NCBI RefSeq assembly: GCF_001457615.1
Contig: NZ_LN831024.1
Location: 2,610,001-2,642,000, forward strand
Reading direction: 5' to 3'
DNA length: 32,000 bases
From: Pseudomonas aeruginosa
GTDB taxonomy: Bacteria > Pseudomonadota > Gammaproteobacteria > Pseudomonadales > Pseudomonadaceae
Shown here: piece by piece, positions 8,912 to 24,845 of the stretch
How positions within the stretch are numbered: the stretch's first letter is position 1
Layout of the letters: each line of letters begins with the position of its first letter
Made by a program: the position numbers and the translations under genes
The notes under the pieces: model-generated
The model's input: only the letters and a program-made list of their open reading frames with translations
Database searches by the model: none
Told to the model about the DNA's origin: nothing

Positions 8912-10651
8912 ATGAGACTGACTCAAGGATTGTTCCGGTTCCCGCTGGCCGGGCTGCTGTGCCTGAGTACGGCCGCCTTCGCGGAGAGCCAGCTTAGCGT
9001 GCGCGTCACCCCCGCCAATGCCGCCCTGAAGGCCAATATCGAGGCCTATGTGGGTAGCCTCGGCGAGCGGGACGAGGCGGCGTTGCAACGTTTCCGCCGC
9101 AATGCCGAGGCGCAGGCGGAAAAGGCGGCCCAGGCGCTCGGCTACTTCCAGGCGCAGATCGACAGCGAGGTGAAGGACGGCAAGCCGCCGAAGCTCACGC
9201 TCAAGGTAGTGCCCGGCGAGCCCGTGCGCCTGCGCCAGGTGAATATCCAGGTGCTCGGCGAGGCCGCCAGCCTGGAGAGCTTCCGCTTGCCGTCGGGCAA
9301 GCAGCTGAAACCGGGCGCGAAGCTGAACCAGGGTGTCTACGAGGATGCCAAGCGGCTGATCCAGAACCAGGCCTCGCGCTACGGCTTCTTCCAGGGCCGC
9401 TTCAGCACCCAGCGCCTGAGCATCGATCCGCGCGCCGGCATCGCCGACATCGACCTGGTCTACGACAGCGGCCAGCGCTACACCTTCGGCAAGGTGAGCT
9501 TCGACGGCGACTCGATCATCGAGGAAGAACTGTTGCGCCGCATGGTGCCGTTCAAGGCCGGCCAACCCTATGACTCCGAACTGATCGCCGAACTCAACCA
9601 GAACCTGCAATCCAGCGGTTACTTCGAGGGCGTGCGGGTCGACGCCGCGCCGACCCAGGCGCAGGCCGACGGCGCGCGCCAGGCGATCCCGGTAGCGGTC
9701 CGGCTGGAGGCGCGCAAGCCCCGGACCATGGGCGTCGGCCTCGGTTTCTCGACCGACGTCGGGGCGCGCGCGAGGTTCAACTGGACCCGCCATTGGGTGA
9801 ATGCCGAAGGACATAGCCTGGGATTCGAGTCGGAAATCTCCGCACCACGGCAGAACGTCGGCGCCTGGTACGAGATTCCCCTCGATCCGCCGCTCACCGA
9901 CAAGCTGCGCTTCACCAGCGGCTACCAGTTCGAAGACCTGGTCGACACCGAGAGCAAGCTGCTGACCCTTGGCGGCGAATGGCACAGCAAGCGGCCCGAT
10001 GGCTGGCAGCGGGTGGTTTCGCTGAACTGGATGCGCGAGGAGTACAAGCTGGGCGACGACTCCGGGCTGAGCAGCTTCCTGATGCCGGGGATCGGCTACT
10101 CGCTGCTGGAGACCGACAACAAGGTCGACCCCAGCCATGGCTACCGCCTGCAGTTCAACGTCAAGGGGGCGAAGGAAGGCCTGCTGGCCGACGCCGACGT
10201 CCTCCATGTCGACGCCATGGCCAAGGGCCTGACCAGCTTCGCCGGCGGCCATCGCCTGCTCGGCCGCCTGCAGGTAGGCGGAATCGCCACCAACGACTAC
10301 AAGTCGATCCCGCCCTCGCTGCGCTTCTTCGCTGGCGGCGACCAGAGCGTGCGTGGCTACGACTACCGGACGCTGTCGCCGGAGAATTCCGATGGCGACA
10401 AGATCGGCGGCCGCTACATGATCGCCGGCAGCGTCGAGTATCAATATCCGCTGGCCGAGCGCTGGCGCCTGGCGACCTTCGTCGACCAGGGCAACGCCTT
10501 CAACTCGCTGGACTTCCCGTCGATCAAGACCGGGGTCGGCTTCGGCGTGCGCTGGGTCTCGCCGGTCGGCCCGTTGCGCCTCGACCTGGCCCATGCGCTC
10601 GACGACGACGGCGGTTTCCGCCTGCACTTCTCCATGGGGCCAGAACTGTGA
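8912..10651 (+). CDS. tamA: translocation and assembly module outer-membrane subunit TamA (Omp85 family)
   Basis: 579-aa ORF with a signal peptide ([12 protein letters not shown]). It has POTRA-like repeats ([10 protein letters not shown]...) and a C-terminal beta-barrel with [12 protein letters not shown] and a terminal aromatic-rich strand. Its stop overlaps the tamB start (GTGA). Confidence 0.9.
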
Positions 10652-13600
10652 AGGCGCTGAAGATCACCTTGCTGGCCATAGTCGGGCTGCTCCTCGCGCT
10701 GCTCCTGGGACTCGCTGCGCTGCTCGGCACCCAGACCGGCAGCGCCTGGCTGCTCGGCCGCGTGCCGGGCCTGCAGGTCAGCGGCTTCGAGGGTCGCCTC
10801 GGTGGCGCCTGGCAGGCACAGCGGCTGTCCTGGGCGCAGGACGGTACGCAACTGGTCGTCGAGCGGCCTGAACTGCGCTGGTCGCCGGCCTGCCTGGCGG
10901 GGCTGCGCCTGTGCCTGCAGCGGGTGGCCGCCGAACGGGTCGCGCTGGACCTGCCGCCGAGCGGCGACAGCGCCGACAGCGGGCCGATCAGCCTGCCGAC
11001 GCTGAAACTGCCGCTGAGCATCGAACTCGGCGAAGTGGCGGTCGGCAGCTTCCTGCTCGACGGCAACCAGCAGGTCGCCGAACTCAAGCTGGCGGCCCAT
11101 TGGCTGGCCGACGGCCTGCACATCGACTCGCTGACGGCGCGGGGCTTCGGCCTGGACCTGGCGCTCCAGGGGCGCTTGCAGCCGAGCGGCGACTGGCCCT
11201 TGCAGGCCGAAGCCACGCTCGGCCTGCCCGCTCCCGAAGACAAGCCGTGGAAGCTGGCCGTCCAGGTCGGCGGTGAACTGCAGAAGGCGCTGACCCTGAA
11301 AGGCCGCAGCAGCGGTTACCTGGACGGCAGCCTGGAAGGACAGTTGCAGGCGCTGGCGGAAAACCTGCCGGCACGATTGCTGATCCGCGCCGACGGTTTC
11401 AAGGGGGCGGCCGGACTACCGGACACCTTGACCCTGAATGCCATCCAGCTCGATGCCAGCGGCGATCTCAAGAGCGGTTACCTGATCCGCGGCGGCGCCA
11501 GCCTGCCGGGCGAGGGCGGGGCGGTGGCGTTGAGCCTGGACGGGCGGGTCGACGCCCAGGGCGCGGATATCCGCCAACTGCGCCTGGACGCTGGCGGCGA
11601 GCAGCGCCTGGAGCTGGTCGGACGCCTGGACTGGCGCGAAAGCCTGGCCGCCGACGCGACCCTGGACTGGAAGGATTTCCCCTGGCTGCGCCTGTATCCG
11701 CTGGCGGAGCCGCCGCCGGTGACGCTGAAGACCTTCAAGGCGGAAGTGCATTACCAGGACCAGCGCTACCTGGGCAATTTCAGCGCGGCGGCGAGCGGTC
11801 CGGCGGGCGACTTCACGCTGGCCAGCCCGGTGTCCGGCGACCTCGTCCAGCTCAACCTGCCGTCGCTGCAGCTCCGCGCCGGGCAAGGCCAGGCCGAGGG
11901 GAGGGTGACGTTGCGTTTCGACAATGGCGTGGCTTGGGATACCGCCCTGCAGCTCAGCGAACTGAACCCGGCTTACTGGGTCGCCGAGCTGCCGGGTTCA
12001 CTGGCCGGTCCCTTGCGTAGCCAGGGAAGTGTTCGCGACGAGCGGCTGGCGTTGGGCGTGGATCTCGACGTCAAGGGCCGCCTGCGCGGCCAGCCGGCGC
12101 TATTCCAGGCGCGCGCCGAAGGCGAGGGGCAGCGCTGGACGCTGGGCAACCTCGACCTGCGCCTGGGGGATAACAAGGTTCAGGGCAGCGGGGCGCTCGA
12201 CCAGCGCCTGCAAGGCCGCCTGGACATCGCCCTGAACCGTCTCGGCCAGCTTTGGCCGCAACTCTTCGGTCGCCTCGACGGACGCCTCGACCTGGCTGGC
12301 AGCCTCGCGGCGCCGCAAGGCAGGCTGAACCTCAAGGGACAGCAGATCGCCTACGCCGAGCAGCGCATCGCCGGCCTCGACCTGCAGGCGAACCTCGATG
12401 CCCGGCAGAACGGCACCCTGGCGCTGGTCGCTTCCGGCCTGCGCAGCGGCGAAACCGACCTCGGCCTGTTCAAGGCCAATGCCCGCGGCGACCAACGCCG
12501 CCAGCAACTGGAACTGGACCTGCAAGGTGCCTTGCTCAAGCTCGGCCTGGCCTTCGACGGGCAACTGGAGCGCGGCAACTGGCGCGGTCGCCTGGCGCGC
12601 GGCGAGTTGAGCAGTGGCGGCCAGGACTGGAAACTACAGCAGCCGGCGCGCCTGGAGCGGTTGGCCGACGGCAGGGTCAATTTCGGCGCACATTGCTGGG
12701 TATCCGGCGCCGCCAGCCTCTGCGGCGGCGAGCAGCGCCTGCTGCCCGAGCCGCGGCTGCGCTACACCCTGCGCGACTTCCCGCTGGACAGCCTGAAGCA
12801 ATGGTTCCCCGAGGACTTCGCCTGGCAGGGCAAGCTGAACGGCGACCTGCAACTGGACGTTCCGGCCCGCGGCCCGAGCGGCGTGGTCAGCCTGGACGCC
12901 GGCAGCGGTACGCTGCGCCTGCGCGACCAGGGCCAGTGGGTCGACGTCGGCTACGACAGCCTGCGCCTGGAGAGCCGGTTGGCGCCCAACCGCGTCGATA
13001 CCTCCCTCGACTTCCGCGGACCGAAGCTCGGCGAGTTGCGGGTGCAGGCGCAGATCGACCCGCGCCCGGCGAGCAAGCCGCTGAGCGGCGAGTTCAGCCT
13101 GGCCGGCCTCGACCTGTCGCTGGCGCGCCCGTTCGTGCCGATGGTGGAGAAACTGCAAGGCAGGCTGAACGGCAGCGGCCGGCTGTCCGGCGGCCTGCTG
13201 GCGCCGCGGGTCGACGGACGGGTGACGCTGAGCGACGGCAACATTGGCGGCGGCGAGCTGCCGACCAGCTTCGAGAACCTTTCCCTCGACGCTCGCATCG
13301 CTGGCGAAAGCCTGGAACTCGGCGGCGGCTGGCGCAGCGGCAGGTACGGCCAGGGCAGCCTGTCCGGCAACCTGAGCTGGGGCGAGGCGCTGAACGTCGC
13401 CCTGAACATCCGTGGCAACCGCCTGCCGGTGGTGGTCGATCCCTATGCGCAACTGGAGGTGGAACCGGACCTGAAGATCGGCATGGCCGGCCAGGAGCTG
13501 GCGATCTCCGGCAAGGTCCTGGTGCCGCGTGGCGACATCACCATCCGCCAGTTGCCGCCATCCACGGTCAAGGTCTCCGACGACGCGGTGATCGTCGGCT

Positions 13601-14313: not shown

Positions 14314-14381
14314 CGGATGCGCTGATACGGACCATGCGTAACGCATAAAAGTGTGTCACTTTTAGCGGCGCATCGACGTCG

Positions 14382-14387
14382 TAGAAT
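14382..14387 (+). promoter_or_regulatory. possible -10 element (TAGAAT) for the lipid operon
   Basis: TAGAAT lies 61 nt upstream of ATG 14448. I found no convincing -35 (CTTTTA/TTTTAG at 16-17 bp spacing). Confidence 0.25.
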
Positions 14388-14447
14388 GGAGCGGGCGCCG
14401 ACCGCCAGGTCGGTGCCCGAAGCAACTCGGCACAAGGACTGGCTGAC

Positions 14448-15083
14448 ATGATTTCCGTCTATCAACTCAAACCGCGCTTTCAGAATCTTCTTCGTCCCGG
14501 CGTGCAGCGCCTCTACCGGCGCGGCATCACTGCCAACCAGGTGACCCTGGCGGCCTGCCTGCTGTCGCTGCTGGTCGGCGCGCTGGTCGCCGGTTTCGCC
14601 AGCCATCTCTGGCTGTTCGCCCTCGTTCCGCTGTGGATGTTCCTGCGCATGGCGCTGAACGCGGTGGACGGCATGCTCGCCCGCGAGTTCGGCCAGAAAT
14701 CCGACCTGGGCGCCTACCTCAACGAACTCACCGACGTGATCGCCGACAGCGGCCTGTACCTGCCGTTCGCCCTGTTGCCGGGAGTCAACCCGCTGTGGGT
14801 GGTGCTGGTGGTGCTGCTGGCGGTGATCAGCGAATATGCCGGCGCGCTGGGCACCATGGTCGGCGCTTCGCGCCGCTACGACGGCCCGATGGGCAAAAGC
14901 GACCGGGCGCTGTGTTTCGGCGTGATCGGCGCCGGGGTGGCCAGCGGCCTTTTGCCGCTGGCCTGGATCGACTGGCTGATGTTGCTGATCGCGGCCCTGC
15001 TGTTGCTGACCATCGGCAACCGCGTGCGCCAGGGCCTGGCCGAGCTGGCCGCGAGTCGACGGGGCAGCGACGGCCAGGCCTGA
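14448..15083 (+). CDS. CDP-alcohol phosphatidyltransferase family protein (E. coli YnbA-like), non-canonical motif
   Basis: 211-aa polytopic membrane ORF. The motif is NAVDGMLAREFGQKSDLGAYLNELTDVIAD, compared with the canonical DxxDGxxAR-x8-GxxxDxxxD. AAGGA lies 9 nt upstream of the ATG. Confidence 0.85.
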   Translation: MISVYQLKPRFQNLLRPGVQRLYRRGITANQVTLAACLLSLLVGALVAGFASHLWLFALVPLWMFLRMALNAVDGMLAREFGQKSDLGAYLNELTDVIADSGLYLPFALLPGVNPLWVVLVVLLAVISEYAGALGTMVGASRRYDGPMGKSDRALCFGVIGAGVASGLLPLAWIDWLMLLIAALLLLTIGNRVRQGLAELAASRRGSDGQA

Positions 15084-15172
15084 GAGGGAACGGGCGAACG
15101 CCATGGAGGTGGGCGCCCGCAGGAAGCAACCCCGCCGGGATCCCGGCCGGGGCAACGACATAGGGACATCAC

Positions 15173-16933
15173 ATGCGCGACGTACAGGAACTGCGTTTCA
15201 CCACCCACGACGGGGTAGAGCTCTTCTACCGCCACTGGCCGGCCAGCCGCCCGGCGCCGGACGGCACGCGCCAGGCGGTGCTGCTGTTCCACCGCGGCCA
15301 TGAGCACTCCGGGCGGATCGCCCACCTGGTCGACGAACTCGACCTGCCGGAACACGACTTCTTCGCCTGGGACGCCCGTGGCCACGGCCTCTCGCCAGGC
15401 GCCCGCGGCGACAGCCCGAGCTTTGCCACCAGCGTGCGCGACGTACAGACCTTCGTCGACCATATCCAGGCCGTCCACGGTATCGCCGAAGAGCGGATGG
15501 CGGTGGTGGCGCAGAGCGTCGGCGCGGTGCTGGTTTCCACCTGGGCCCACGACTACGCGCCGAAGGTGCGCGCACTGGTGCTGGCTTCGCCGGCGTTCCA
15601 GGTCAAGCTCTATGTGCCGTTCGCCCGCAGCGGGCTGAAACTGATGCGCCTGTGGCGCGGCAATTTCTTCGTCAACAGCTATGTCAAGGCACGCTTCCTC
15701 AGTCACGACCCGGAGCGGATCGCCTCCTACGACAGCGACCCGCTGATCGCCAAGGCGATCTCGGTGAACGTCCTGCTCGGCCTCTACGAAGCTGCCGAGC
15801 GGGTGGTAGCGGACGCACAGGCGATCCAGATTCCCACCCAACTGCTGATTTCCGGGGCCGACTTCGTCGTCCATCGTGCGCCGCAGGAGCGCTTCTTCGA
15901 GCGTCTCGGCAGCCTGCGCAAGGAAAAGCACATCCTGCCCGGCTTCTTCCACGACACCCTTGGCGAGCGCGATCGTCACCTGGCCGTCGGCCGTGCCCGG
16001 CGCTTCCTCCTCGAGGCATTCGCCACGGCACCTGAACGACCGAGCCTGCTCGATGCCGACCGCCTGGGCCATACCTGCGCCGAGGCCGAGGCGCTGGCCG
16101 CGCCGTTGCCGAAGAACTCGCCGCGCGATCTCTACTGGCGCGCCACCCGTGCCGGGCTGCGCCTGGGCAGCCTGTGGTCGGACGGGGTCAAGCTGGGCTT
16201 CGACACCGGCTTCGATTCCGGCAGCACCCTCGACTATGTCTACCGCAACCAGCCCAGCGGCAGCGGCCCGCTGGGTCGCCTGATCGACCGCAACTACCTG
16301 GACTCCATCGGCTGGCGCGGCATCCGCCAGCGCAAGCTGCACGCCGAGGAGCTGCTGCGCCTGGCCATGCAGCGGTTGCGCGAGGAGCAGCGCGAGGTGC
16401 GCATCGTCGACATCGCCGCCGGCCACGGCCGCTACATCCTCGAAGCCCTGCAAGGCGTCGAGCCGCTGCCGGAAAGCATCCTCCTGCGCGACTACAGCGA
16501 GATCAACGTGCGTGACGGCAGCGCCCTGATCGAAAGCAAGGGCCTCGCCGGCATCGCCCGCTTCGTCAAGGGCGATGCCTTCGATCGCGCCGACCTGGCG
16601 GCGCTGCAACCGAAGCCGAGCCTCGGGGTGGTTTCCGGGCTCTACGAGCTGTTCGCCGACAACCGCATGGTCGGCGACTCCCTCGCCGGCCTCGGCGAGG
16701 CGCTGGAGGAGGGCGGCTACCTGGTCTACACCGGACAGCCCTGGCACCCGCAGCTGGAACTGATCGCCCGCGCGCTGACCAGCCACCGCCAGGGCCAGGC
16801 CTGGGTGATGCGGCGCCGGACCCAGGCGGAAATGGACCAGCTGGTGGCCGCCGCCGGCTTCCGCAAGATCACCCAGCGGGTCGACCAGTGGGGCATCTTC
16901 AGCGTATCGCTGGCGCAGAAGGTCGCCCGCTGA
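15173..16933 (+). CDS. fusion protein: N-terminal alpha/beta hydrolase (lysophospholipase/monoacylglycerol-lipase type) plus C-terminal class I SAM-dependent methyltransferase (YnbC-like)
   Basis: 586 aa. The hydrolase part has LLFHRGHEHSGR (oxyanion-hole type), a nucleophile elbow AQSVG, and GFFHDTL (His). The methyltransferase part has VRIVDIAAGHGRY (motif I), LLRDYS (post-I acidic residue) and VVSGLYELF. Confidence 0.8.
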   Translation: MRDVQELRFTTHDGVELFYRHWPASRPAPDGTRQAVLLFHRGHEHSGRIAHLVDELDLPEHDFFAWDARGHGLSPGARGDSPSFATSVRDVQTFVDHIQAVHGIAEERMAVVAQSVGAVLVSTWAHDYAPKVRALVLASPAFQVKLYVPFARSGLKLMRLWRGNFFVNSYVKARFLSHDPERIASYDSDPLIAKAISVNVLLGLYEAAERVVADAQAIQIPTQLLISGADFVVHRAPQERFFERLGSLRKEKHILPGFFHDTLGERDRHLAVGRARRFLLEAFATAPERPSLLDADRLGHTCAEAEALAAPLPKNSPRDLYWRATRAGLRLGSLWSDGVKLGFDTGFDSGSTLDYVYRNQPSGSGPLGRLIDRNYLDSIGWRGIRQRKLHAEELLRLAMQRLREEQREVRIVDIAAGHGRYILEALQGVEPLPESILLRDYSEINVRDGSALIESKGLAGIARFVKGDAFDRADLAALQPKPSLGVVSGLYELFADNRMVGDSLAGLGEALEEGGYLVYTGQPWHPQLELIARALTSHRQGQAWVMRRRTQAEMDQLVAAAGFRKITQRVDQWGIFSVSLAQKVAR

Positions 16934-18282
16934 TGGCGCCGCGCGAGCCGGGGGTACTGAAGCGGGCGGTGCTCTGGCTGCTGTTCCTCGGCCCGTTCTT
17001 CTTCGCCAGCTATGGCCTGGCCAACTGGTTGACCAGCCAGCGCGGCGACGTCGGCAGCCTGGTCTTCGACTGGGAACGCGGGATGCCGCTGTGGCCCTGG
17101 ACCATCCTGCCGTACTGGTCGATCGACCTGCTCTACGGCCTGTCGCTGTTGTTGCCGCGGGACAAGCGCGAGCTGGACACCCACTGCCTGCGCCTGCTCA
17201 GCACCCAGGTGCTGTCGGTGACCTGCTTCCTGCTGTTCCCCCTGCGCTTCACCTTCGAACGGCCGGAACTGGGCGGCGTGTTCGGCTGGCTGTTCGACGT
17301 GCTGATGGGGTTCGACAAACCGTACAACCAGGCACCGTCGCTGCACATCGCCCTGCTGGTAGTGCTCTGGGTCTGCTACGCGCGCTACGCCAGCGGCGCC
17401 TGGCGCTGGCTGCTGCATGGCTGGTTCGCGCTGATCGGGCTGTCGGTGCTGACCACCTGGCAGCACCATTTCATCGACGTGCCCACCGGCGCGCTGGCCG
17501 GTTGGCTGTGCGTCTGGCTGTGGCCGCAGGCGCAGCCCGCGCCGTTCGCCCGCGCCAGTCTGAGCCGCGACCGGCAACGGCGGCGGCTGGCCGCTCGCTA
17601 CGGCCTCGGCGCGCTGGCCTGCGCCGCCGTCGCCTTTGCCGTCGGCGGTGCGGCGTTGTGGCTGTGCTGGCCGGCGCTGGCGCTGGCGCTGGTGGCGCTG
17701 AACTACCTGCTGTTCGGCGCCGCCGGCTTCCAGAAGGGCAGCACTGGCCGCCTGAGCGCCGCCGCGCGCTGGCTGCTGGCGCCATATCTGCTTGCCGCGC
17801 GGATCAACGCCTGGCTCTGGACCCGTCGCCGGCCGCAGCCGGACGAGGTGCTGCCGGGCCTCTGGTTGGGGCGCCTGCCGTCGTCCGCGGAACTGGCCGA
17901 CGGCCGCTTCCGCGCATTGCTCGACGCTACCGCCGAACTTTCCTGCGAGCCGCAGGGGCTGGCCTATCGCAGCCTGCCGTTGCTCGACCTGGTCGCGCCG
18001 GACGTCGAGGACTGCCGGCGCGCCGCGGTGCTGATCGACGAACTGCTGGCGCAAGGGCCGCTGCTGGTGGCCTGTGCCCTGGGCTATTCGCGCAGCGCCA
18101 CGCTGGTCGCCGCCTGGCTGCTGCTCAGCGGCCGCGCGGCGGACGTCGAGTCGGCCGTGGCCGTGTTACGTCGGGCGCGACCGCAAGTGCTGCTGGGCGA
18201 GGCCCAGCGGCGGACCCTCGCGGCGCTGAGCGGGAGCGTGCCGGAGCCATCGGCGGAACTGGGCGAGGTGCGCCATGCCTGA
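16933..18282 (+). CDS. fusion membrane protein: PAP2-superfamily domain plus C-terminal dual-specificity (CX5R) phosphatase domain (YnbD-like)
   Basis: ATG 16933 overlaps the upstream TGA (TGATG). The PAP2-type motifs are PSLH (17335-17346) and QHHFIDVPTG (17461-17490), within a polytopic N-terminal half. The P-loop VACALGYSRS has Cys at 18073-18075 and Arg at 18091-18093. Confidence 0.8.
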   Translation: MAPREPGVLKRAVLWLLFLGPFFFASYGLANWLTSQRGDVGSLVFDWERGMPLWPWTILPYWSIDLLYGLSLLLPRDKRELDTHCLRLLSTQVLSVTCFLLFPLRFTFERPELGGVFGWLFDVLMGFDKPYNQAPSLHIALLVVLWVCYARYASGAWRWLLHGWFALIGLSVLTTWQHHFIDVPTGALAGWLCVWLWPQAQPAPFARASLSRDRQRRRLAARYGLGALACAAVAFAVGGAALWLCWPALALALVALNYLLFGAAGFQKGSTGRLSAAARWLLAPYLLAARINAWLWTRRRPQPDEVLPGLWLGRLPSSAELADGRFRALLDATAELSCEPQGLAYRSLPLLDLVAPDVEDCRRAAVLIDELLAQGPLLVACALGYSRSATLVAAWLLLSGRAADVESAVAVLRRARPQVLLGEAQRRTLAALSGSVPEPSAELGEVRHA

Positions 18283-18727
18283 GCAAACCCTGGCCCTGGT
18301 GGCGGCCCTGCTGCGCCGTGGCCGCGAGCTTGACCGGCTGTCCGCCGCACTGACCCTGCTGGCCATCGGGCTGGGCCTGTACCAGGCCGTGCAGGGCATC
18401 GGCTGGCGCTATTTCGCTGCGGCGATGCTGGCGATCGCCATGCTCGGCCTGTGGCAGAAGTACTGGGCGCTGCGAGTGGCCCTGGACGCCGAACTGTTCG
18501 AACGTTTCAGCCGCGTCGGCGACAGGCTGGAAGCGCAGACCCAAGACCTGGACCGGGCCCTGGCCGATCTCGGCCTGGCCCGAGCGGACGCCGCAGGGCG
18601 CACCTGGAACCAGCGCAGCCGCGGCGCCCTGCGCCTGCTACGCTGGCAGGCGCTGGCCTGTGGCGCCCAGTTCCTGCTGGCCTTGTCGTGCCTGTTGTCG
18701 ATCCCTCTATTCAACGCTCAAACCTGA
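18275..18727 (+). CDS. small membrane protein, unknown function (150 aa)
   Basis: ATG 18275 overlaps the upstream gene by 8 nt. It has three hydrophobic segments (LTLLAIGLGLY, FAAAMLAIAMLGLW, AQFLLALSCLLSIPLF) around a charged helical stretch. Codon bias is consistent with coding. Confidence 0.65.
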   Translation: MPEQTLALVAALLRRGRELDRLSAALTLLAIGLGLYQAVQGIGWRYFAAAMLAIAMLGLWQKYWALRVALDAELFERFSRVGDRLEAQTQDLDRALADLGLARADAAGRTWNQRSRGALRLLRWQALACGAQFLLALSCLLSIPLFNAQT

Positions 18728-18738
18728 AGAGTCTTCCC

Positions 18739-19368
18739 ATGCTCGAATCAGTCGTCGCCTATGGCATCATCGCCGGCGCCCGCGCCATCACCGGCTTGCG
18801 CAGCCTCTGGCTGGGCACCACGCCGATCCCCAAGCAACGCATCTATTACGCCAACCACAGCAGCCATGGCGACTTCGTCCTGCTCTGGGCCTCGCTGCCG
18901 CCGGAGGTGCGGCGGCGTACCCGGCCGGTGGCGGGCGCCGACTACTGGAACAAGGCCGGCCTGCGCAGCTACGTGATCAACAAGGTGTTCAACGGCGTGC
19001 TGGTCGACCGCCAGCGCAGCGAGGCCAATGCCAATCCGCTCGAACCCCTCGACCGCGCCCTGGACGGCGGCGATTCGCTGATCATCTTCCCCGAGGGCAC
19101 CCGCAACCTGGACGACGAGGTCAAGCTGTTGCCATTCAAGAGCGGTATCTACCACCTGTCCCTGGCCCACCCGGACGTCGAGCTGGTGCCGGTCTGGCTG
19201 GCCAACCTCAACCGGGTCATGCCCAAGGGCCGCATGCTGCCGTTGCCGCTGCTCTGCACCCTGAGCTTCGGCAAGCCGCTGGTCGCCACGGCGGAAGAAG
19301 GCAAGGAGGCGTTCCTCGAACGAGCGCGCATGGCCCTGCTGGACCTGGCGCCGGAAGAGGAGGCCTGA
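18739..19368 (+). CDS. PlsC-type (lyso)phospholipid acyltransferase
   Basis: ORF 18451..19368, trimmed to ATG 18739 (MLESVVAYGI...), 11 nt after the previous stop. It carries the H(X)4D block NHSSHGD and the FPEGTR block. Confidence 0.85.
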   Translation: MLESVVAYGIIAGARAITGLRSLWLGTTPIPKQRIYYANHSSHGDFVLLWASLPPEVRRRTRPVAGADYWNKAGLRSYVINKVFNGVLVDRQRSEANANPLEPLDRALDGGDSLIIFPEGTRNLDDEVKLLPFKSGIYHLSLAHPDVELVPVWLANLNRVMPKGRMLPLPLLCTLSFGKPLVATAEEGKEAFLERARMALLDLAPEEEA

Positions 19369-19369
19369 G

Positions 19370-20305
19370 ATGAACGAACAGACCTGGATGCTCTTCGGCG
19401 GGATCGGCGCGCTGCTGCTGCTCGCCTCGCTGGTCGGCTTCGTCCTCAAGTGGCGCGCCGGTCCCGGCCCGAACGCGGTGATCGACAACCTGAACGCACG
19501 GATCAACGCCTGGTGGGCGATGGTCCTGGTGATCGGTTTCGCCTTCTGGCTTGGCCAGGCGGCGGTGATCCTGCTGTTCTATGGCGTGTCGTTCTACGCC
19601 CTGCGCGAGTTCATCACCCTCACCCCGACCCGGCGCAGCGACTACCCGGCGCTGGTGGCGGCGTTCTACTTCGTGCTGCCGATGCAGTACCTGCTGATCT
19701 ACATCGACTGGTACAGCATGTTCTCGATCTTCATCCCGGTGTACGTGTTCCTGCTGTTGCCGATCCTCGCCTCGCTGGGCGGCGACACCAAGCACTTCCT
19801 CGAACGCGCCTCGAAAGTGCAGTGGGGCCTGATGCTGGCGGTGTTCTGTATCTCCTTCGTGCCGGCGCTGCTGACCCTCGACATCCCCGGCTTCGAGGGG
19901 CGCAACCTGCTGCTGATCGCCTACCTGGTGATCGTCGTGCAGCTCTCCGACGTGATGCAGTACATCTGCGGCAAGCTGTTCGGCAAGCGCAAGATCGCTC
20001 CCAACCTGTCGCCGTCGAAGACCGTCGAAGGCTTCGTCGGCGGCATCGCCCTGGCCACCGCCATCGGCGCCTCGCTGTGGTGGATCACCCCGTTCAACCT
20101 CTGGCAGGCGGCGCTGATCGCGCTGCTGATCAACCTGCTGGGCTTCTTCGGCGGCCTGGTGATGTCGGCGATCAAGCGCGACCGTGGGGTCAAGGACTGG
20201 GGGCACATGATCGAAGGCCACGGTGGCATGCTCGACCGCCTGGACTCGGTGTGCTTCGCCGCGCCGATCTTCTTCCACGTGGTGCGCTACTGGTGGACGC
20301 CCTGA
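19370..20305 (+). CDS. phosphatidate cytidylyltransferase (CDP-diglyceride synthase) paralogue, YnbB-like
   Basis: 311-aa polytopic ORF starting 1 nt after the acyltransferase stop. It carries the CdsA signature SAIKRDRGVKDWGHMIEGHGGMLDRLDS and SPSKTVEG. Confidence 0.9.
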   Translation: MNEQTWMLFGGIGALLLLASLVGFVLKWRAGPGPNAVIDNLNARINAWWAMVLVIGFAFWLGQAAVILLFYGVSFYALREFITLTPTRRSDYPALVAAFYFVLPMQYLLIYIDWYSMFSIFIPVYVFLLLPILASLGGDTKHFLERASKVQWGLMLAVFCISFVPALLTLDIPGFEGRNLLLIAYLVIVVQLSDVMQYICGKLFGKRKIAPNLSPSKTVEGFVGGIALATAIGASLWWITPFNLWQAALIALLINLLGFFGGLVMSAIKRDRGVKDWGHMIEGHGGMLDRLDSVCFAAPIFFHVVRYWWTP

Positions 20306-20329
20306 GGTTCGCCTGGCGCCGAGGGGAGC

Positions 20330-20367
20330 GGGGCGGTTGCCGATGGCGGCCGCCCCCTCGTCGTTTT
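20330..20367 (+). terminator. probable rho-independent terminator of the lipid operon
   Basis: GGGGCGG (20330-20336) pairs with CCGCCCC (20350-20356), with an inner GCC/GGC pairing. CTCGTCGTTTT follows (T run 20364-20367). Confidence 0.55.
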
Positions 20368-20410
20368 CCCGCCGTGTAGGCAGCCAGGAAATTGCGAGCG
20401 ATAGAGACCC

Positions 20411-20491
20411 GTAGGGCGGATACCACCACAGGCGGTATCCGCCGAAACCCCGGATAAGCGGCGGATAACCGCAAGCGGTGATTCGCCCTAC
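20411..20491. repeat. REP-like intergenic palindromic element
   Basis: Outer inverted ends are GTAGGGCG (20411-20418) and CGCCCTAC (20484-20491). An inner 10-bp hairpin pairs GGCGGATACC with GGTATCCGCC (20415-20443). Further CGGATAA motifs occur at 20451-20457 and 20462-20468. It lies between convergent genes. Confidence 0.6.
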
Positions 20492-20535: not shown

Positions 20536-21531
20536 TCAGAGATTGACCAGGCGCATGCCTTCCTCGCTATAGCGACTGCCGGCGACCGCCTCGGCGGGGA
20601 AGATCGCATCCAGCTCGGCCAGTTCCGCCGCGCTCAGGCGCAATTCCGTCGCGGCGACGTTCTCCTCCAGGTAGCGCCGCTGCTTGGTGCCGGGAATCGG
20701 GATCAGGTCATCGCCCTGCGCCAGCACCCAGGCCAGCGCCAGTTGCGAGGGTTTCACGCCCTTGGCCGCGGCCAGTTCGCCGACCTTGTCCACCAGCTTC
20801 AGGTTCTTCGCGAAGTTCTCGCCCTGGAAGCGCGGGCTGAAACGACGGTAGTCGTCGGCGGCGAAGTCTTCCGGGCGCTTCAGGGTGCCGGTAAGGAAAC
20901 CTCGGCCCAGCGGGCTGTAGGGGACGAAGGCGATGCCCAGGCGACGGCAGGCGGCGAGCACCCCGGTGTCCTCCGGATCGCGAGTCCACAGCGAGTACTC
21001 GCTCTGCAACGCGCTGATCGGGTGCACCCGGTGGGCACGCTCGAGGGTTTCCGCCGAGGCTTCGCTGAGACCGATGTGGCGGATCTTGCCGGCCTTCACC
21101 AGGTCGGCGAGGGCGCCGACGCTGTCCTCGATGGGTACCTGCGGGTCCATGCGGTGCTGATAGTACAGGTCCAGGCGGTCGGTACCGAGGCGCTTCAGGC
21201 TGCCTTCGATGGCGCGGCGGATGTACGCCGGGCTGCCGTCGACGCCGCGCGCCCGGGGATTGGCAGGGTCGCGGACGATGCCGAACTTGCTGGCCAGGAA
21301 CACCTGCTCGCGTTTGCCGCGCAGGGCCTCGCCGAGCAGTTCCTCGTTACTGTGCGGGCCGTACATGTCGGCGGTATCGAAGAAGTTCAGCCCGAGTTCC
21401 ACGGCGCGATGCAGGGTGGCGATGGCCTCCTGGCGGTCGCCGCCGGTGGTGTAGAAGTCGGTCATGCCCATGCAGCCGAGGCCGATGGCGGAGACGGATG
21501 GGCCGTTGTGGCCGAGTTGACGGGTTTTCAT
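20536..21531 (-). CDS. aldo-keto reductase (NADPH-dependent oxidoreductase)
   Basis: 331 aa. [35 protein letters not shown] and [16 protein letters not shown] are typical AKR blocks. Confidence 0.9.
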
Positions 21532-24698: not shown

Positions 24699-24796
24699 GC
24701 CCCACGGCCAACCCGCTTCGTCCCATGACTGTCAGCCAGGCTGGCTGGTAACGGGCGAACCCGAATCCCTTGGCTGCTCGCCTCGGGCCATGAGCA

Positions 24797-24845
24797 GGGC
24801 GGATAATCGCGGCGCGGTCATCCGCCCTGCGTCGCAGAGACGCAG
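24797..24845. repeat. tandem hairpins between convergent tpx and aminotransferase; the first is REP-like (GGGCGGAT...ATCCGCCC)
   Basis: GGGCGGAT (24797-24804) pairs with ATCCGCCC (24820-24827). CTGCGTC (24827-24833) pairs with GACGCAG (24839-24845). There is no T run. They probably act as terminators or RNA stabilisers. Confidence 0.5.

Follow-up and report, generated by a model that had tools for sequence, protein, structure and literature searches.

The window, a 32,000-nucleotide stretch of Pseudomonas aeruginosa DNA, contains six forward-strand genes at positions 14448 to 20305. The first, arc1A (PA2541; 14448-15083), encodes a YnbA-type CDP-alcohol phosphatidyltransferase, a membrane protein of 211 amino acids. 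It is followed by arc1B (PA2540; 15173-16933, 586 amino acids), whose product fuses a YnbC-type alpha/beta hydrolase to a Methyltransf_20 domain, and by arc1C (PA2539; 16933-18282), which encodes a YnbD-type fusion of PAP2-like and dual-specificity phosphatase (DSP) domains, 449 amino acids long from its ATG. The arc1C frame can also be read from a GTG at 16888, an alternative start. The remaining genes are arc1D (PA2538; 18275-18727), for a 150-residue membrane protein of no known family; arc1E (PA2537; 18739-19368), for a PlsC-family lysophospholipid acyltransferase of 209 residues; and arc1F (PA2536; 19370-20305), for a 311-residue CDP-diacylglycerol synthase paralog of the YnbB type. The successive junctions are an 89-nt gap, a 1-nt overlap (TGATG, 16931-16935), an 8-nt overlap (ATGCCTGA, 18275-18282), an 11-nt gap and a 1-nt gap. 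These reading frames and coupling-type junctions are exactly as described in a first-pass annotation made from the sequence alone, which listed the products in an order other than the true one, where the acyltransferase is fifth and the CdsA-like protein last. All five proteins that it placed in families pass a Pfam profile search, Arc1C through DSPc, its PAP2 matches being sub-threshold.

TamB is encoded upstream of the six genes; downstream are genes for an aldo-keto reductase and a LysR regulator, in agreement with the PAO1 neighborhood. The primers published for deleting PA2541 and PA2536 (PMC8926400) map at positions 13457, 14436, 15074, 18569, 19359 and 21059. Because these primers fall inside the window, the region is the known P. 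aeruginosa arc1A-F operon (PA2541-PA2536), a six-gene membrane-lipid pathway, and not a new locus. The operon was named for antagonism resistance cluster 1 (arc1) by Ting et al. (eLife 2022; PMC8926400). That report and the window agree in the number, order and predicted functions of the genes, with no difference in sequence; the published work covers regulation and phenotype only, not biochemistry. [quoted passage not shown] The arc1 defect was not relieved by mutating any one B. thailandensis effector (PMC8926400), so protection is not simply anti-lipase. A 2025 paper reports that arc1A protects against the lipase effectors TseL and Tle1 (PMC12663445). Far from being uncharacterized, as first annotated, the operon is a Gac/Rsm-controlled T6SS-defense operon (PMC8926400, PMC12663445); the annotation was right that its product lipid is unassigned, none being assigned in the literature searched.

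The 134-nt leader between tamB and arc1A (14314..14447, forward strand) contains two stable hairpins (z = -4.3 for the fold against shuffles). An Rfam search with this leader returned no match, and a promoter scan of it found no sigma-70 consensus. Next to arc1A, a small hairpin at 14427..14446 (forward strand) has the loop ACAAGGAC; the predicted fold places GGA (14436-14438) in that loop over the Shine-Dalgarno region, 10-12 nt upstream of the arc1A ATG. This hairpin is a candidate RsmA binding site. A published list of RsmA targets includes PA2541, with one known binding site around the Shine-Dalgarno sequence (PMC4066749). Most of the Pseudomonas loci listed have an A(N)GGA motif at the corresponding position, and E. 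coli ynbA likewise has GGA in a hairpin over its ribosome-binding site. The 89-nt spacer between arc1A and arc1B (15084..15172, forward strand) holds two hairpins (z = -2.05), one of which shows AUGGA (15103-15107) in its loop, where we infer a putative second RsmA site.

Arc1A matches Pfam model PF01066 at 33.5 bits (cut-off 22). Its motif, mapped on the Mycobacterium tuberculosis PIP synthase (MtPIPS) structure 6h53, is the variant N71-x2-D74-G-x2-A-R-x8-G-x3-N92-x3-D96-x3-D100. Of the three Asp residues that bind metal, D1 and D3 are Asn in every YnbA-family member examined, so the chemistry of Arc1A may differ from that of classical family members. The best equivalog matches, archaetidylinositol-phosphate (AIP) synthase at 73.8 bits (cut-off 180) and PIP synthase at 51.9 bits (cut-off 170), are both sub-threshold; the PgsA and PssA models give 22 bits, and the best PDB match is the M. 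tuberculosis PIP synthase. PIP and AIP synthases (MtPgsA1, RsPIPS) are the closest characterized relatives, similar in length and transmembrane layout and sharing DG-x2-AR-x8-G and the catalytic D4 with Arc1A. They differ from it in lacking the Asn substitutions and in their acceptor-binding Arg pair, which is not clearly in register in Arc1A; the arc1-type clusters inspected, moreover, have no linked inositol-phosphate synthase. Four basic residues are invariant in the Arc1A family. Of these, R142, K150 and R153 are close to the position of MtPIPS R155, the residue that binds the acceptor phosphate, and R192 is near the C-terminus; in the phmmer alignment R155 pairs with Ala154, one residue off the invariant Arg153.

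Arc1F matches PF01148 at 255.9 bits, and its residues 61-305 align with the TmCdsA structures 4q2e and 4q2g. Against the CdsA equivalog model it scores 89.5, below the cut-off of 385. The full CdsA signature claimed in the annotation is present as the stretch SAIKRDRGVKDWGHMIEGHGGMLDRLD, but with one non-consensus residue (E for P/G/S) relative to the PROSITE pattern. Arc1E matches PF01553 at 60.9 bits, carries NHSSHGD and FPEGTR in its translation and has no strongly hydrophobic segment; overexpression of Arc1E (PA2537) restricts P. aeruginosa growth (PMC4086342). For Arc1D, searches of Pfam and NCBIfam gave no match, nor did a PDB search at E <= 0.001. Its AF2 model (pLDDT 84.5) consists of three long helices. 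Homologs of Arc1D, where named in sources, are almost only "hypothetical" or "transmembrane" proteins, and its positional equivalents in Shinella and Burkholderia are 27-30% identical.

In Arc1B, the hydrolase domain (residues 32-267, triad S115/D230/H260) matches PF12146 at 234.5 bits and monoacylglycerol lipase 6qe2 at E = 9.5e-19. The class I SAM methyltransferase domain (Methyltransf_20, residues 276-583, motif DIAAGHGRY) matches PF12147 at 523.9 bits. Its AF2 model has a pLDDT of 92, and its only whole-domain structural neighbor is the uncharacterized protein 3ocj. The triad and the SAM motif are unchanged in the homologs compared, across phyla. Arc1C has PAP2-like residues at RP 110-111, PSLH 135-138 and S171-x6-H178-H179-x2-D182, with PAP2 and PAP2_3 matches of 20-21 bits against a cut-off of 27. 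Its DSP domain (D352, C381-x5-R387, CALGYSR) matches DSPc at 35.4 bits (cut-off 33.5) and DSP structures in PDB. The catalytic residues of Arc1C are invariant in eight diverse homologs. A precedent for lipid dephosphorylation by the DSP fold is PTPMT1, which acts on PGP in mitochondria. Lipid phosphatases of this type share the CX5R P-loop and upstream general-acid Asp with Arc1C; unlike them, Arc1C has its DSP domain fused to a multi-spanning PAP2-like domain, and its sequence gives no direct evidence of a lipid substrate.

Four of the proteins, as annotated, match E. coli YnbA, YnbB, YnbC and YnbD; they are orthologs (50, 39, 56 and 40% identity to Arc1A, Arc1F, Arc1B and Arc1C, respectively), and ynbABCD and arc1 have both fusion architectures in common. 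In E. coli the genes run A-B(CdsA-like)-C-D, whereas the arc1 order is A-C-D-small protein-acyltransferase-B. A check of co-occurrence across genomes, suggested with the annotation, found all six genes, identically ordered, at 72 of 80 Pseudomonadaceae genome loci, and the arrangement is therefore not due to chance. The six-gene set is also present in Shinella, Burkholderia and three metagenome contigs and thus spans Alpha-, Beta- and Gammaproteobacteria, including the small no-family protein in the same position. In a cyanobacterium and on an IncF plasmid of E. coli, too, the core is found with an acyltransferase. This distribution reverses the annotation's view that Pseudomonas adds the acyltransferase and the 150-residue protein: the widespread form is that with six genes, and chromosomal E. 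coli ynbABCD, which lacks both, looks like a reduced form of it. Adjacency to tamB is not conserved. Common to clusters across phyla are the CdsA paralog, the YnbA-type transferase and the Methyltransf_20 domain, and a natural YnbA::YnbC fusion exists (CDP-OH_P_transf::Hydrolase_4::Methyltransf_20, protein P0243). No phosphatase gene is found in the Fusobacterium cluster or the annotated Pseudanabaena cluster. The phosphatase therefore lies outside the universal core, the core does not require a phosphorylated intermediate, and the linear pathway drawn in the annotation is only one possibility.

Taken as a whole, these observations incline us, by a modest degree, to regard arc1 as an inducible, private CDP-diacylglycerol branch that is repressed by RsmA, makes a specialized anionic phospholipid and defends the envelope, its chemistry being read from homology. 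RsmA bound to the GGA hairpin over the ribosome-binding site would block translation of at least arc1A until firing of the Gac/Rsm danger-sensing pathway lifts the block, a release reported in the literature. The six proteins would then form a branch parallel to the housekeeping PlsC/CdsA/PgsA enzymes. Arc1E would acylate a lysolipid to phosphatidate, and Arc1F would convert this to CDP-diacylglycerol. Arc1A would pass the phosphatidyl group on to an acceptor that is anionic, likeliest a polyol phosphate such as glycerol-3-phosphate, since its nearest characterized relatives are inositol-phosphate-using synthases. The cytoplasmic DSP domain of Arc1C could strip the terminal phosphate, as PTPMT1 does. 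Arc1B probably acts physically beside Arc1A, because natural fusions exist; together with the PAP2-type His/His/Asp domain of Arc1C it may tailor the lipid or pass on the head group, with Arc1D as a small helical membrane partner. The outcome would be a specialized, probably minor, anionic phospholipid or a remodeled membrane, and an envelope that tolerates phospholipase and other type VI effectors.

The housekeeping phosphatidylglycerol (PG) pathway (PlsC, CdsA, PgsA, PgpA/B/C) draws on the same superfamilies as arc1 for acylation, CDP activation and phosphatidyl transfer, and PgpB, like Arc1C, has a PAP2 phosphatase. All four of the corresponding arc1 proteins, however, fall far below the equivalog cut-offs, Arc1A is nearer to the inositol-phosphate-using clade with Asn at D1 and D3, and arc1 adds the DSP domain, the hydrolase::methyltransferase and the small protein. 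The operon is also inducible and non-essential, unlike the housekeeping pathway. Against the private-branch reading stand the methyltransferase domain, which belongs to the universal core and has no role in a simple PG-like scheme, the PAP2 matches below Pfam cut-offs, the Asn residues at D1 and D3 of Arc1A, the clusters of Fusobacterium and Pseudanabaena that have no phosphatase gene, the persistence of the arc1 defect against single effector mutants of B. thailandensis, and the fact that no paper reports a lipid product.

We think it unlikely that the operon instead repairs membranes by salvage and makes no new lipid, with the hydrolase and acyltransferase clearing or re-acylating lysophospholipids and fatty acids released by injected phospholipases, and the CdsA-like, YnbA-like and phosphatase proteins returning phosphatidate to ordinary PG. 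The greater sensitivity of arc1A mutants to TseL and Tle1 (PMC12663445), the monoacylglycerol-lipase/lysophospholipase family of the Arc1B N-terminal domain, the lysophospholipid acyltransferase Arc1E, and the homology of four Arc1 proteins to PG-synthesis enzymes noted by the original authors (PMC8926400) would all fit. [quoted passage not shown] Related clusters also occur in a Fusobacterium, a cyanobacterium (adjoining nif genes) and E. coli plasmids, with no type VI genes seen in the flanks inspected.

An MPIase-type pyrophosphate glycolipid is improbable. Arc1F and Arc1A would here combine CDP-diacylglycerol with a sugar-1-phosphate to give a sugar-PP-diacylglycerol (e.g. GlcNAc-PP-DAG), the reaction proposed for E. 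coli CdsA/YnbB, and a phosphorylated acceptor would suit the basic residues of Arc1A. YnbB, the ortholog of Arc1F, is a weak CdsA-like enzyme that cannot replace CdsA for bulk phospholipid synthesis, and its overproduction raises MPIase, in line with the annotation's link between YnbB and MPIase synthesis; deletion of ynbB, however, caused no significant MPIase change (PMC6362211). None of the loci inspected has a glycosyltransferase gene linked to the cluster, and the MPIase literature found that names YnbB is distinct from the literature that names ynbA, ynbC or ynbD too. Pseudomonas is not known to produce the ECA-type trisaccharide that MPIase carries. Least probable of all is a bacterial phosphatidylinositol-type pathway, with Arc1A acting like a PIP synthase on inositol-1-phosphate and the CX5R domain of Arc1C as a PIP phosphatase: CX5R phosphatases do include phosphoinositide phosphatases, and the best equivalog and PDB matches of Arc1A point the same way, but both equivalog scores are far below their cut-offs, MtPIPS R155 pairs with an Ala, no inositol-phosphate synthase gene lies in or beside any cluster inspected, and P. 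aeruginosa and E. coli have no known inositol-1-phosphate synthase.

The annotation bounded the operon by a structured leader and by a terminator plus REP element. The leader (z = -4.3) and a REP-like element (z = -6.9) bear this out, while the terminator is only a weak candidate. It consists of a GC-rich hairpin (approximately 20323-20362; with its UUUU, 20323..20368, forward strand) followed by only four U, with a stability no better than that of shuffles (z = -1.3), and the terminator scan did not call it; an intrinsic terminator is on these grounds plausible but weak. The REP-like element is an 81-nt palindrome at 20411..20491 (GTAGGGCGGATA ... CGCCCTAC). Matches to its arm motif are more frequent in the window than expected (6 against 1.4), and a second, related palindrome lies at 24794-24830.

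The PAO1 locus numbers that we take to apply to this gene neighborhood led, through a literature search, to Ting et al. Six segments of the primers in that study match the window exactly, at 13457, 14436, 15074, 18569, 19359 and 21059, and the matched positions, from the PA2541 and PA2536 deletions, bracket genes 1 and 6; a seventh primer, PA2541_R2, has no match of at least 14 bases in the window. Immediately upstream on the same strand lies tamB (PF04357; 10648-14313). Before it, directly on the upstream side of the operon, is a 579-aa ORF at 8912-10651, which we take to be tamA and which overlaps the assumed start of tamB by 4 nt. Downstream are an aldo-keto reductase gene on the opposite strand (20536-21531) and a gene for a LysR regulator. 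Because of the primer matches and these neighbors, the locus is identified as the published arc1A-F operon, PA2541-PA2536.

The name stands for "antagonism resistance cluster 1" (Ting et al., eLife 2022; PMC8926400). The arc1 genes belong to the Gac/Rsm regulon, with basal expression that is very low and inducible, and mutants suffer a fitness loss specific to attack by the type VI system of B. thailandensis; arc1 relies on neither arc2 nor arc3 for its action and does not serve as a general stress system, and five of its six products resemble phospholipid enzymes, four of those five resembling enzymes of phosphatidylglycerol synthesis (PMC8926400). It is one of three named P. aeruginosa defense clusters against contact-dependent attack, and of the three it alone consists almost wholly of lipid-metabolism enzymes. 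A CRISPRi screen in a 2025 Nature Communications paper recovered arc1A, which helps the cell resist the lipase effectors TseL and Tle1 (PMC12663445), and overexpression of PA2537, the acyltransferase, restricts growth (PMC4086342). No lipid product of arc1 is named in the searchable literature. The first-pass annotation interpreted the protein families and the YnbB link soundly, but missed that the operon already had a name and a published regulation and phenotype. The locus is already known, and the leads described here leave that status unchanged.

The operon consists of arc1A (14448-15083), arc1B (15173-16933), arc1C (16933-18282), arc1D (18275-18727), arc1E (18739-19368) and arc1F (19370-20305), all on the forward strand. 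The junctions agree with those first described: arc1A and arc1B are 89 nt apart, arc1B and arc1C overlap at TGATG, arc1C and arc1D share the 8 nt ATGCCTGA, and gaps of 11 nt and 1 nt follow; the products were then listed in an order other than that of the genes. The claim of a structured leader also stands, as the 134-nt leader has a fold far more stable than its shuffles (z = -4.3). A terminator plus a REP element had been proposed for the 3' end. Fold and motif analysis show the 81-nt palindrome (20411-20491) to be a true REP-like element, while the terminator, a hairpin with UUUU after it, is weak (z = -1.3) and was not called by the scanner. A consensus scan returned no sigma-70 promoter, and its terminator calls were at chance level at most and located within genes. 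An Rfam scan of the leader, spacers and 3' region returned nothing relevant.

Pfam profile searches place five of the six proteins in the families proposed for them. Arc1A scores 33.5 bits to PF01066, against a cut-off of 22. Among NCBIfam models, those for PIP synthase and archaetidylinositol-phosphate synthase (NF045883, 51.9 bits vs 170; NF040950, 73.8 bits vs 180) rank well above those for PgsA (TIGR00560, 22.3 bits vs 109.1) and PssA, with all of these scores below cut-off. Arc1A aligns with the M. tuberculosis PIP synthase (MtPIPS). It departs from the classical signature D1-x2-D2-G-x2-A-R-x8-G-x3-D3-x3-D4, having Asn at D1 and D3 (N71 and N92). These two Asn residues are invariant in Arc1A and seven homologs spanning three phyla, as are D2, G, A, G and D4, with the Arg kept in seven of the eight (Asn in Fusobacterium); the eight sequences give a YnbA-family signature of N-x2-D-G-x2-A-R/N-x8-G-x3-N-E-x2-D-x3-D. 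In CDP-alcohol phosphatidyltransferases, the metal is held by the first three Asp residues, with the fourth serving as catalytic base (PMC4634129); the YnbA family thus retains the base and has a modified metal site. A literature search found no paper commenting on these Asn substitutions. Four basic residues of Arc1A, R142, K150, R153 and R192, are invariant as well, and R153 adjoins the position aligned with R155 of MtPIPS, which binds the acceptor phosphate together with a second arginine. This conservation suggests that the acceptor is anionic.

Arc1B matches Hydrolase_4 (234.5 bits) and Methyltransf_20 (523.9 bits). Its hydrolase half belongs to the monoacylglycerol-lipase family, with monoacylglycerol lipases in PDB matching at E-values down to 9.5e-19, and S115, D230 and H260, invariant in an alignment of homologs, form its probable catalytic triad. 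In the methyltransferase half, the SAM motif D138-x-A-G-x-G is invariant across the domain alignment. The AF2 model of this domain has a pLDDT of 92, and nearly all of its PDB matches have the SAM-methyltransferase fold. The sole whole-domain neighbor is 3ocj, an uncharacterized Bordetella protein; the others are generic small-molecule methyltransferases that match over the Rossmann core alone. PDB profile matches to a "methyltransferase type 12" (9sls) and to cyclopropane-fatty-acyl-phospholipid synthase (7qos) were too weak to assign a substrate.

Arc1C passes the DSPc cut-off (35.4 bits vs 33.5) and falls just under the cut-offs of about 27 for PAP2 (20.1) and PAP2_3 (21.2). Compared with the PAP2 motifs C1 (K-x6-RP), C2 (PSGH) and C3 (SR-x5-H-x3-D), it lacks the C1 Lys and the C3 Arg, and its motifs RP, PSLH and S-x6-H-x3-D have canonical spacing and are invariant in eight diverse homologs. 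So are D352 and C381-x5-R387 of the DSP domain, and by this invariance both halves look catalytically competent. Arc1D, of 150 aa, has no Pfam or NCBIfam match; AF2 predicts three long helices, for which a fold search returned generic helical bundles only, all at E > 0.1, and no structural relative. Arc1E matches PF01553 (60.9 bits vs 23) and contains NHxxxxD and FPEGTR motifs in translation, but scores under the cut-offs of the PlsC models TIGR00530 (subfamily domain) and NF011593 (equivalog). Arc1F scores 255.9 bits to PF01148 (CTP_transf_1), aligns over residues 61-305 with the Thermotoga CdsA (TmCdsA), and has the C-terminal CdsA signature stretch at residue 266. Its score of 89.5 bits to the CdsA equivalog model NF008635 lies below the cut-off of 385, and it is a YnbB-type paralog of CdsA. 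In a crude hydropathy scan, Arc1A, Arc1C, Arc1D and Arc1F show hydrophobic segments, and Arc1B and Arc1E show none.

Protein BLASTP against the MG1655 cluster bears out the resemblance to ynbABCD, with near full-length matches of Arc1A to YnbA (50% identity), Arc1F to YnbB (39%), Arc1B to YnbC (56%) and Arc1C to YnbD (40%). The arc1 operon encodes orthologs of all four Ynb proteins together; however, the E. coli cluster has four genes in the order A-B-C-D, whereas arc1 has six, with the CdsA-like gene last.

Genome contigs were scanned with Arc1B as the seed, and 79 of the best 80 loci come from Pseudomonadaceae; a plasmid collection and metagenome contigs supplied wider taxonomic sampling. 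All six genes occur in the order A-B-C-D-E-F in 72 of the 80, and three of the other eight sit on short contigs whose ends fall in or close to the cluster. Among the 80, three Stutzerimonas-related lineages keep arc1B alone. In Stutzerimonas stutzeri KOS6 (locus L075, 8301-11752) the lone homolog, 74% identical, sits directly behind a gene for a 507-aa VTT(DedA-like)::PAP2 fusion, with the other five genes not nearby; loci L076 and L077 have a lone arc1B as well. The six-gene set also occurs in Shinella, Burkholderia ambifaria and three metagenome contigs, where position four encodes a protein of 130-160 aa without any family match; the small proteins of Shinella and Burkholderia have the same layout as Arc1D and 27-30% identity to it. 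This distribution does not support a four-gene cluster enlarged by two genes in Pseudomonas, and the chromosomal ynb cluster of E. coli looks like a reduced form.

Other clusters vary in content. Fusobacterium has B-A-F only, Pseudanabaena has A-F-E plus a stand-alone methyltransferase, an E. coli IncFIA/IncFIC plasmid typed as conjugative (L088, 5422-8737) has F-E-B, and a Moraxella variant has a patatin-like lipase and an SDR. All complete clusters share a CdsA paralog, a YnbA-type transferase and a Methyltransf_20 domain; the acyltransferase and hydrolase are the usual companions of this core, with the phosphatase and the small protein as optional members. The YnbA/YnbB/YnbC core is conserved from Fusobacteria and Cyanobacteria to Proteobacteria. 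An exhaustive protein search found 471 clusters (50% identity) related to Arc1B at E <= 1e-30. One such relative is an 807-aa natural fusion, CDP-OH_P_transf::Hydrolase_4::Methyltransf_20, which argues that Arc1A and Arc1B work together physically. One protein cluster, P0392, was considered as a stand-alone methyltransferase and rejected, being an E. coli-type ynbC split by IS1. In L089 (6402-8936), an E. coli-like metagenome contig, IS1 divides ynbC into hydrolase and methyltransferase ORFs, and the cluster of the methyltransferase fragment has 131 member sequences, read on 22 contigs. A look-up of protein cluster P0468 found nothing on record. Clusters of the ynb/arc1 type occur on plasmids in the conjugative L088 and in L083, a 19-kb Burkholderia ambifaria plasmid, and the pathway may therefore be horizontally mobile.

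The last 20 nt of the arc1 leader fold into a small hairpin with ACAAGGAC in its loop, over the Shine-Dalgarno sequence; the GGA is at 14436-14438, 10-12 nt upstream of the arc1A ATG. An A(N)GGA motif stands in the same place in most listed Pseudomonas loci, as ACACGGAUG in the P. syringae group, with about a dozen loci lacking it. PA2541 is among the mRNAs reported to have one RsmA site, located around the Shine-Dalgarno sequence (PMC4066749). In the arc1A-arc1B spacer (15084-15172), a hairpin carries AUGGA in its loop (15103-15107). The GGA motifs of the spacer, the one in this loop among them, are CAUGGAGG, GCAGGAAG, CGGGAUC and UAGGGAC, and they may be extra RsmA sites through which arc1B translation is controlled. 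The ynbA leader of E. coli MG1655 (L001, 5560-5624) ends in the inverted repeat UUAUCAAGGAUUGAUAAUG, which could form a hairpin displaying AGGA over the ynbA start codon, a candidate CsrA-type site. As sequence observations, the hairpin GGA features fit direct RsmA/CsrA control, and the connection of this cluster with Csr/Rsm may predate Pseudomonas.

We lean, by a modest degree, toward an inducible CDP-diacylglycerol branch, and hold any particular head group within this scheme with much less confidence. Arc1E would produce phosphatidate, which Arc1F would convert to CDP-diacylglycerol. Arc1A would then move the phosphatidyl group onto an anionic acceptor; we know of no inositol-phosphate synthase in P. 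aeruginosa, so glycerol-3-phosphate is the simplest candidate. The DSP domain of Arc1C would dephosphorylate the Arc1A product, after which Arc1B and the PAP2-type domain would tailor the lipid or pass its head group on. Published work has shown the Gac/Rsm dependence and defense phenotype (PMC8926400), the lipase-effector link (PMC12663445) and weak CdsA-like behavior of the E. coli ortholog YnbB (PMC6362211). The weak points of the scheme are a universally conserved methyltransferase left without a role, an optional phosphatase and the altered metal site of Arc1A.

It is possible, though we advance it tentatively, that the YnbA/YnbB/YnbC core makes a class of phospholipid not yet described. 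Its parts would be a transferase with an invariant Asn-Asp-Asn-Asp metal site, a CDP-diacylglycerol synthase of its own and a hydrolase::methyltransferase that in some cases forms one protein with the transferase. The product could be an anionic lipid, either methylated or mono-acyl, or else a phosphatidyl donor from which the PAP2-type domain would pass the head group on at the periplasmic face. Plain salvage into ordinary phosphatidylglycerol would suit the published likeness of four products to phosphatidylglycerol-synthesis enzymes; we think it unlikely. A pyrophosphate glycolipid resembling MPIase is improbable. The data that bear on formation of GlcNAc-PP-diacylglycerol, a step of MPIase biosynthesis, are those on overexpression of E. 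coli YnbB. Overproduction of YnbB raises MPIase, which confirms the link given in the first-pass annotation, but deletion of ynbB alone causes no significant change in MPIase, and YnbB cannot substitute for CdsA (PMC6362211). An inositol lipid, to which the NCBIfam ranking of Arc1A would point, is improbable as well.

If the core does make a new lipid, Pseudomonas would deploy it on demand through Gac/Rsm as membrane armor against injected toxins, and E. coli ynbABCD, long without a function, would carry out the same chemistry. The arc1 product would explain the retuning of membrane composition as an innate defense and would also give the widespread ynbABCD family a function. That product is a question recognized in the field, made more tractable by comparative and active-site leads; the three-part core, the natural fusion, the invariant Asn residues of the transferase, the intact PAP2::DSP catalytic residues and the GGA hairpins point to narrower experiments.

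Adjacency to tamB, considered as a functional clue that lipid made here is exported by TamB, was rejected; tamB lies within 10 kb in none of the 80 other loci, so the adjacency is specific to P. aeruginosa. A Kosakonia match of 38% identity, considered as a ynb cluster, was likewise rejected as a paralog in a fatty-acid-synthase-like cluster. On this Kosakonia cowanii plasmid (L086, 3886-9611), the paralog lies beside genes for acyl carrier protein, ketosynthase, MaoC dehydratase, FabG and a metal-dependent hydrolase, a context that resembles fatty-acid synthesis rather than the CDP-diacylglycerol pathway. It prompts the pure speculation that the hydrolase::methyltransferase is a BioC/BioH-like pair that would methyl-mask and then de-esterify. 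An aldo-keto reductase gene is found near the E. coli cluster too (pdxI, L001 2222-3082, two genes upstream, 32% identical), and its presence beside the cluster in both species is probably a coincidence. At 24794-24830 the window has a second short palindrome (GCAGGGCGGATA ... CATCCGCCCTGC), whose sequence is related to that of the arms of the 20411-20491 REP-like element.
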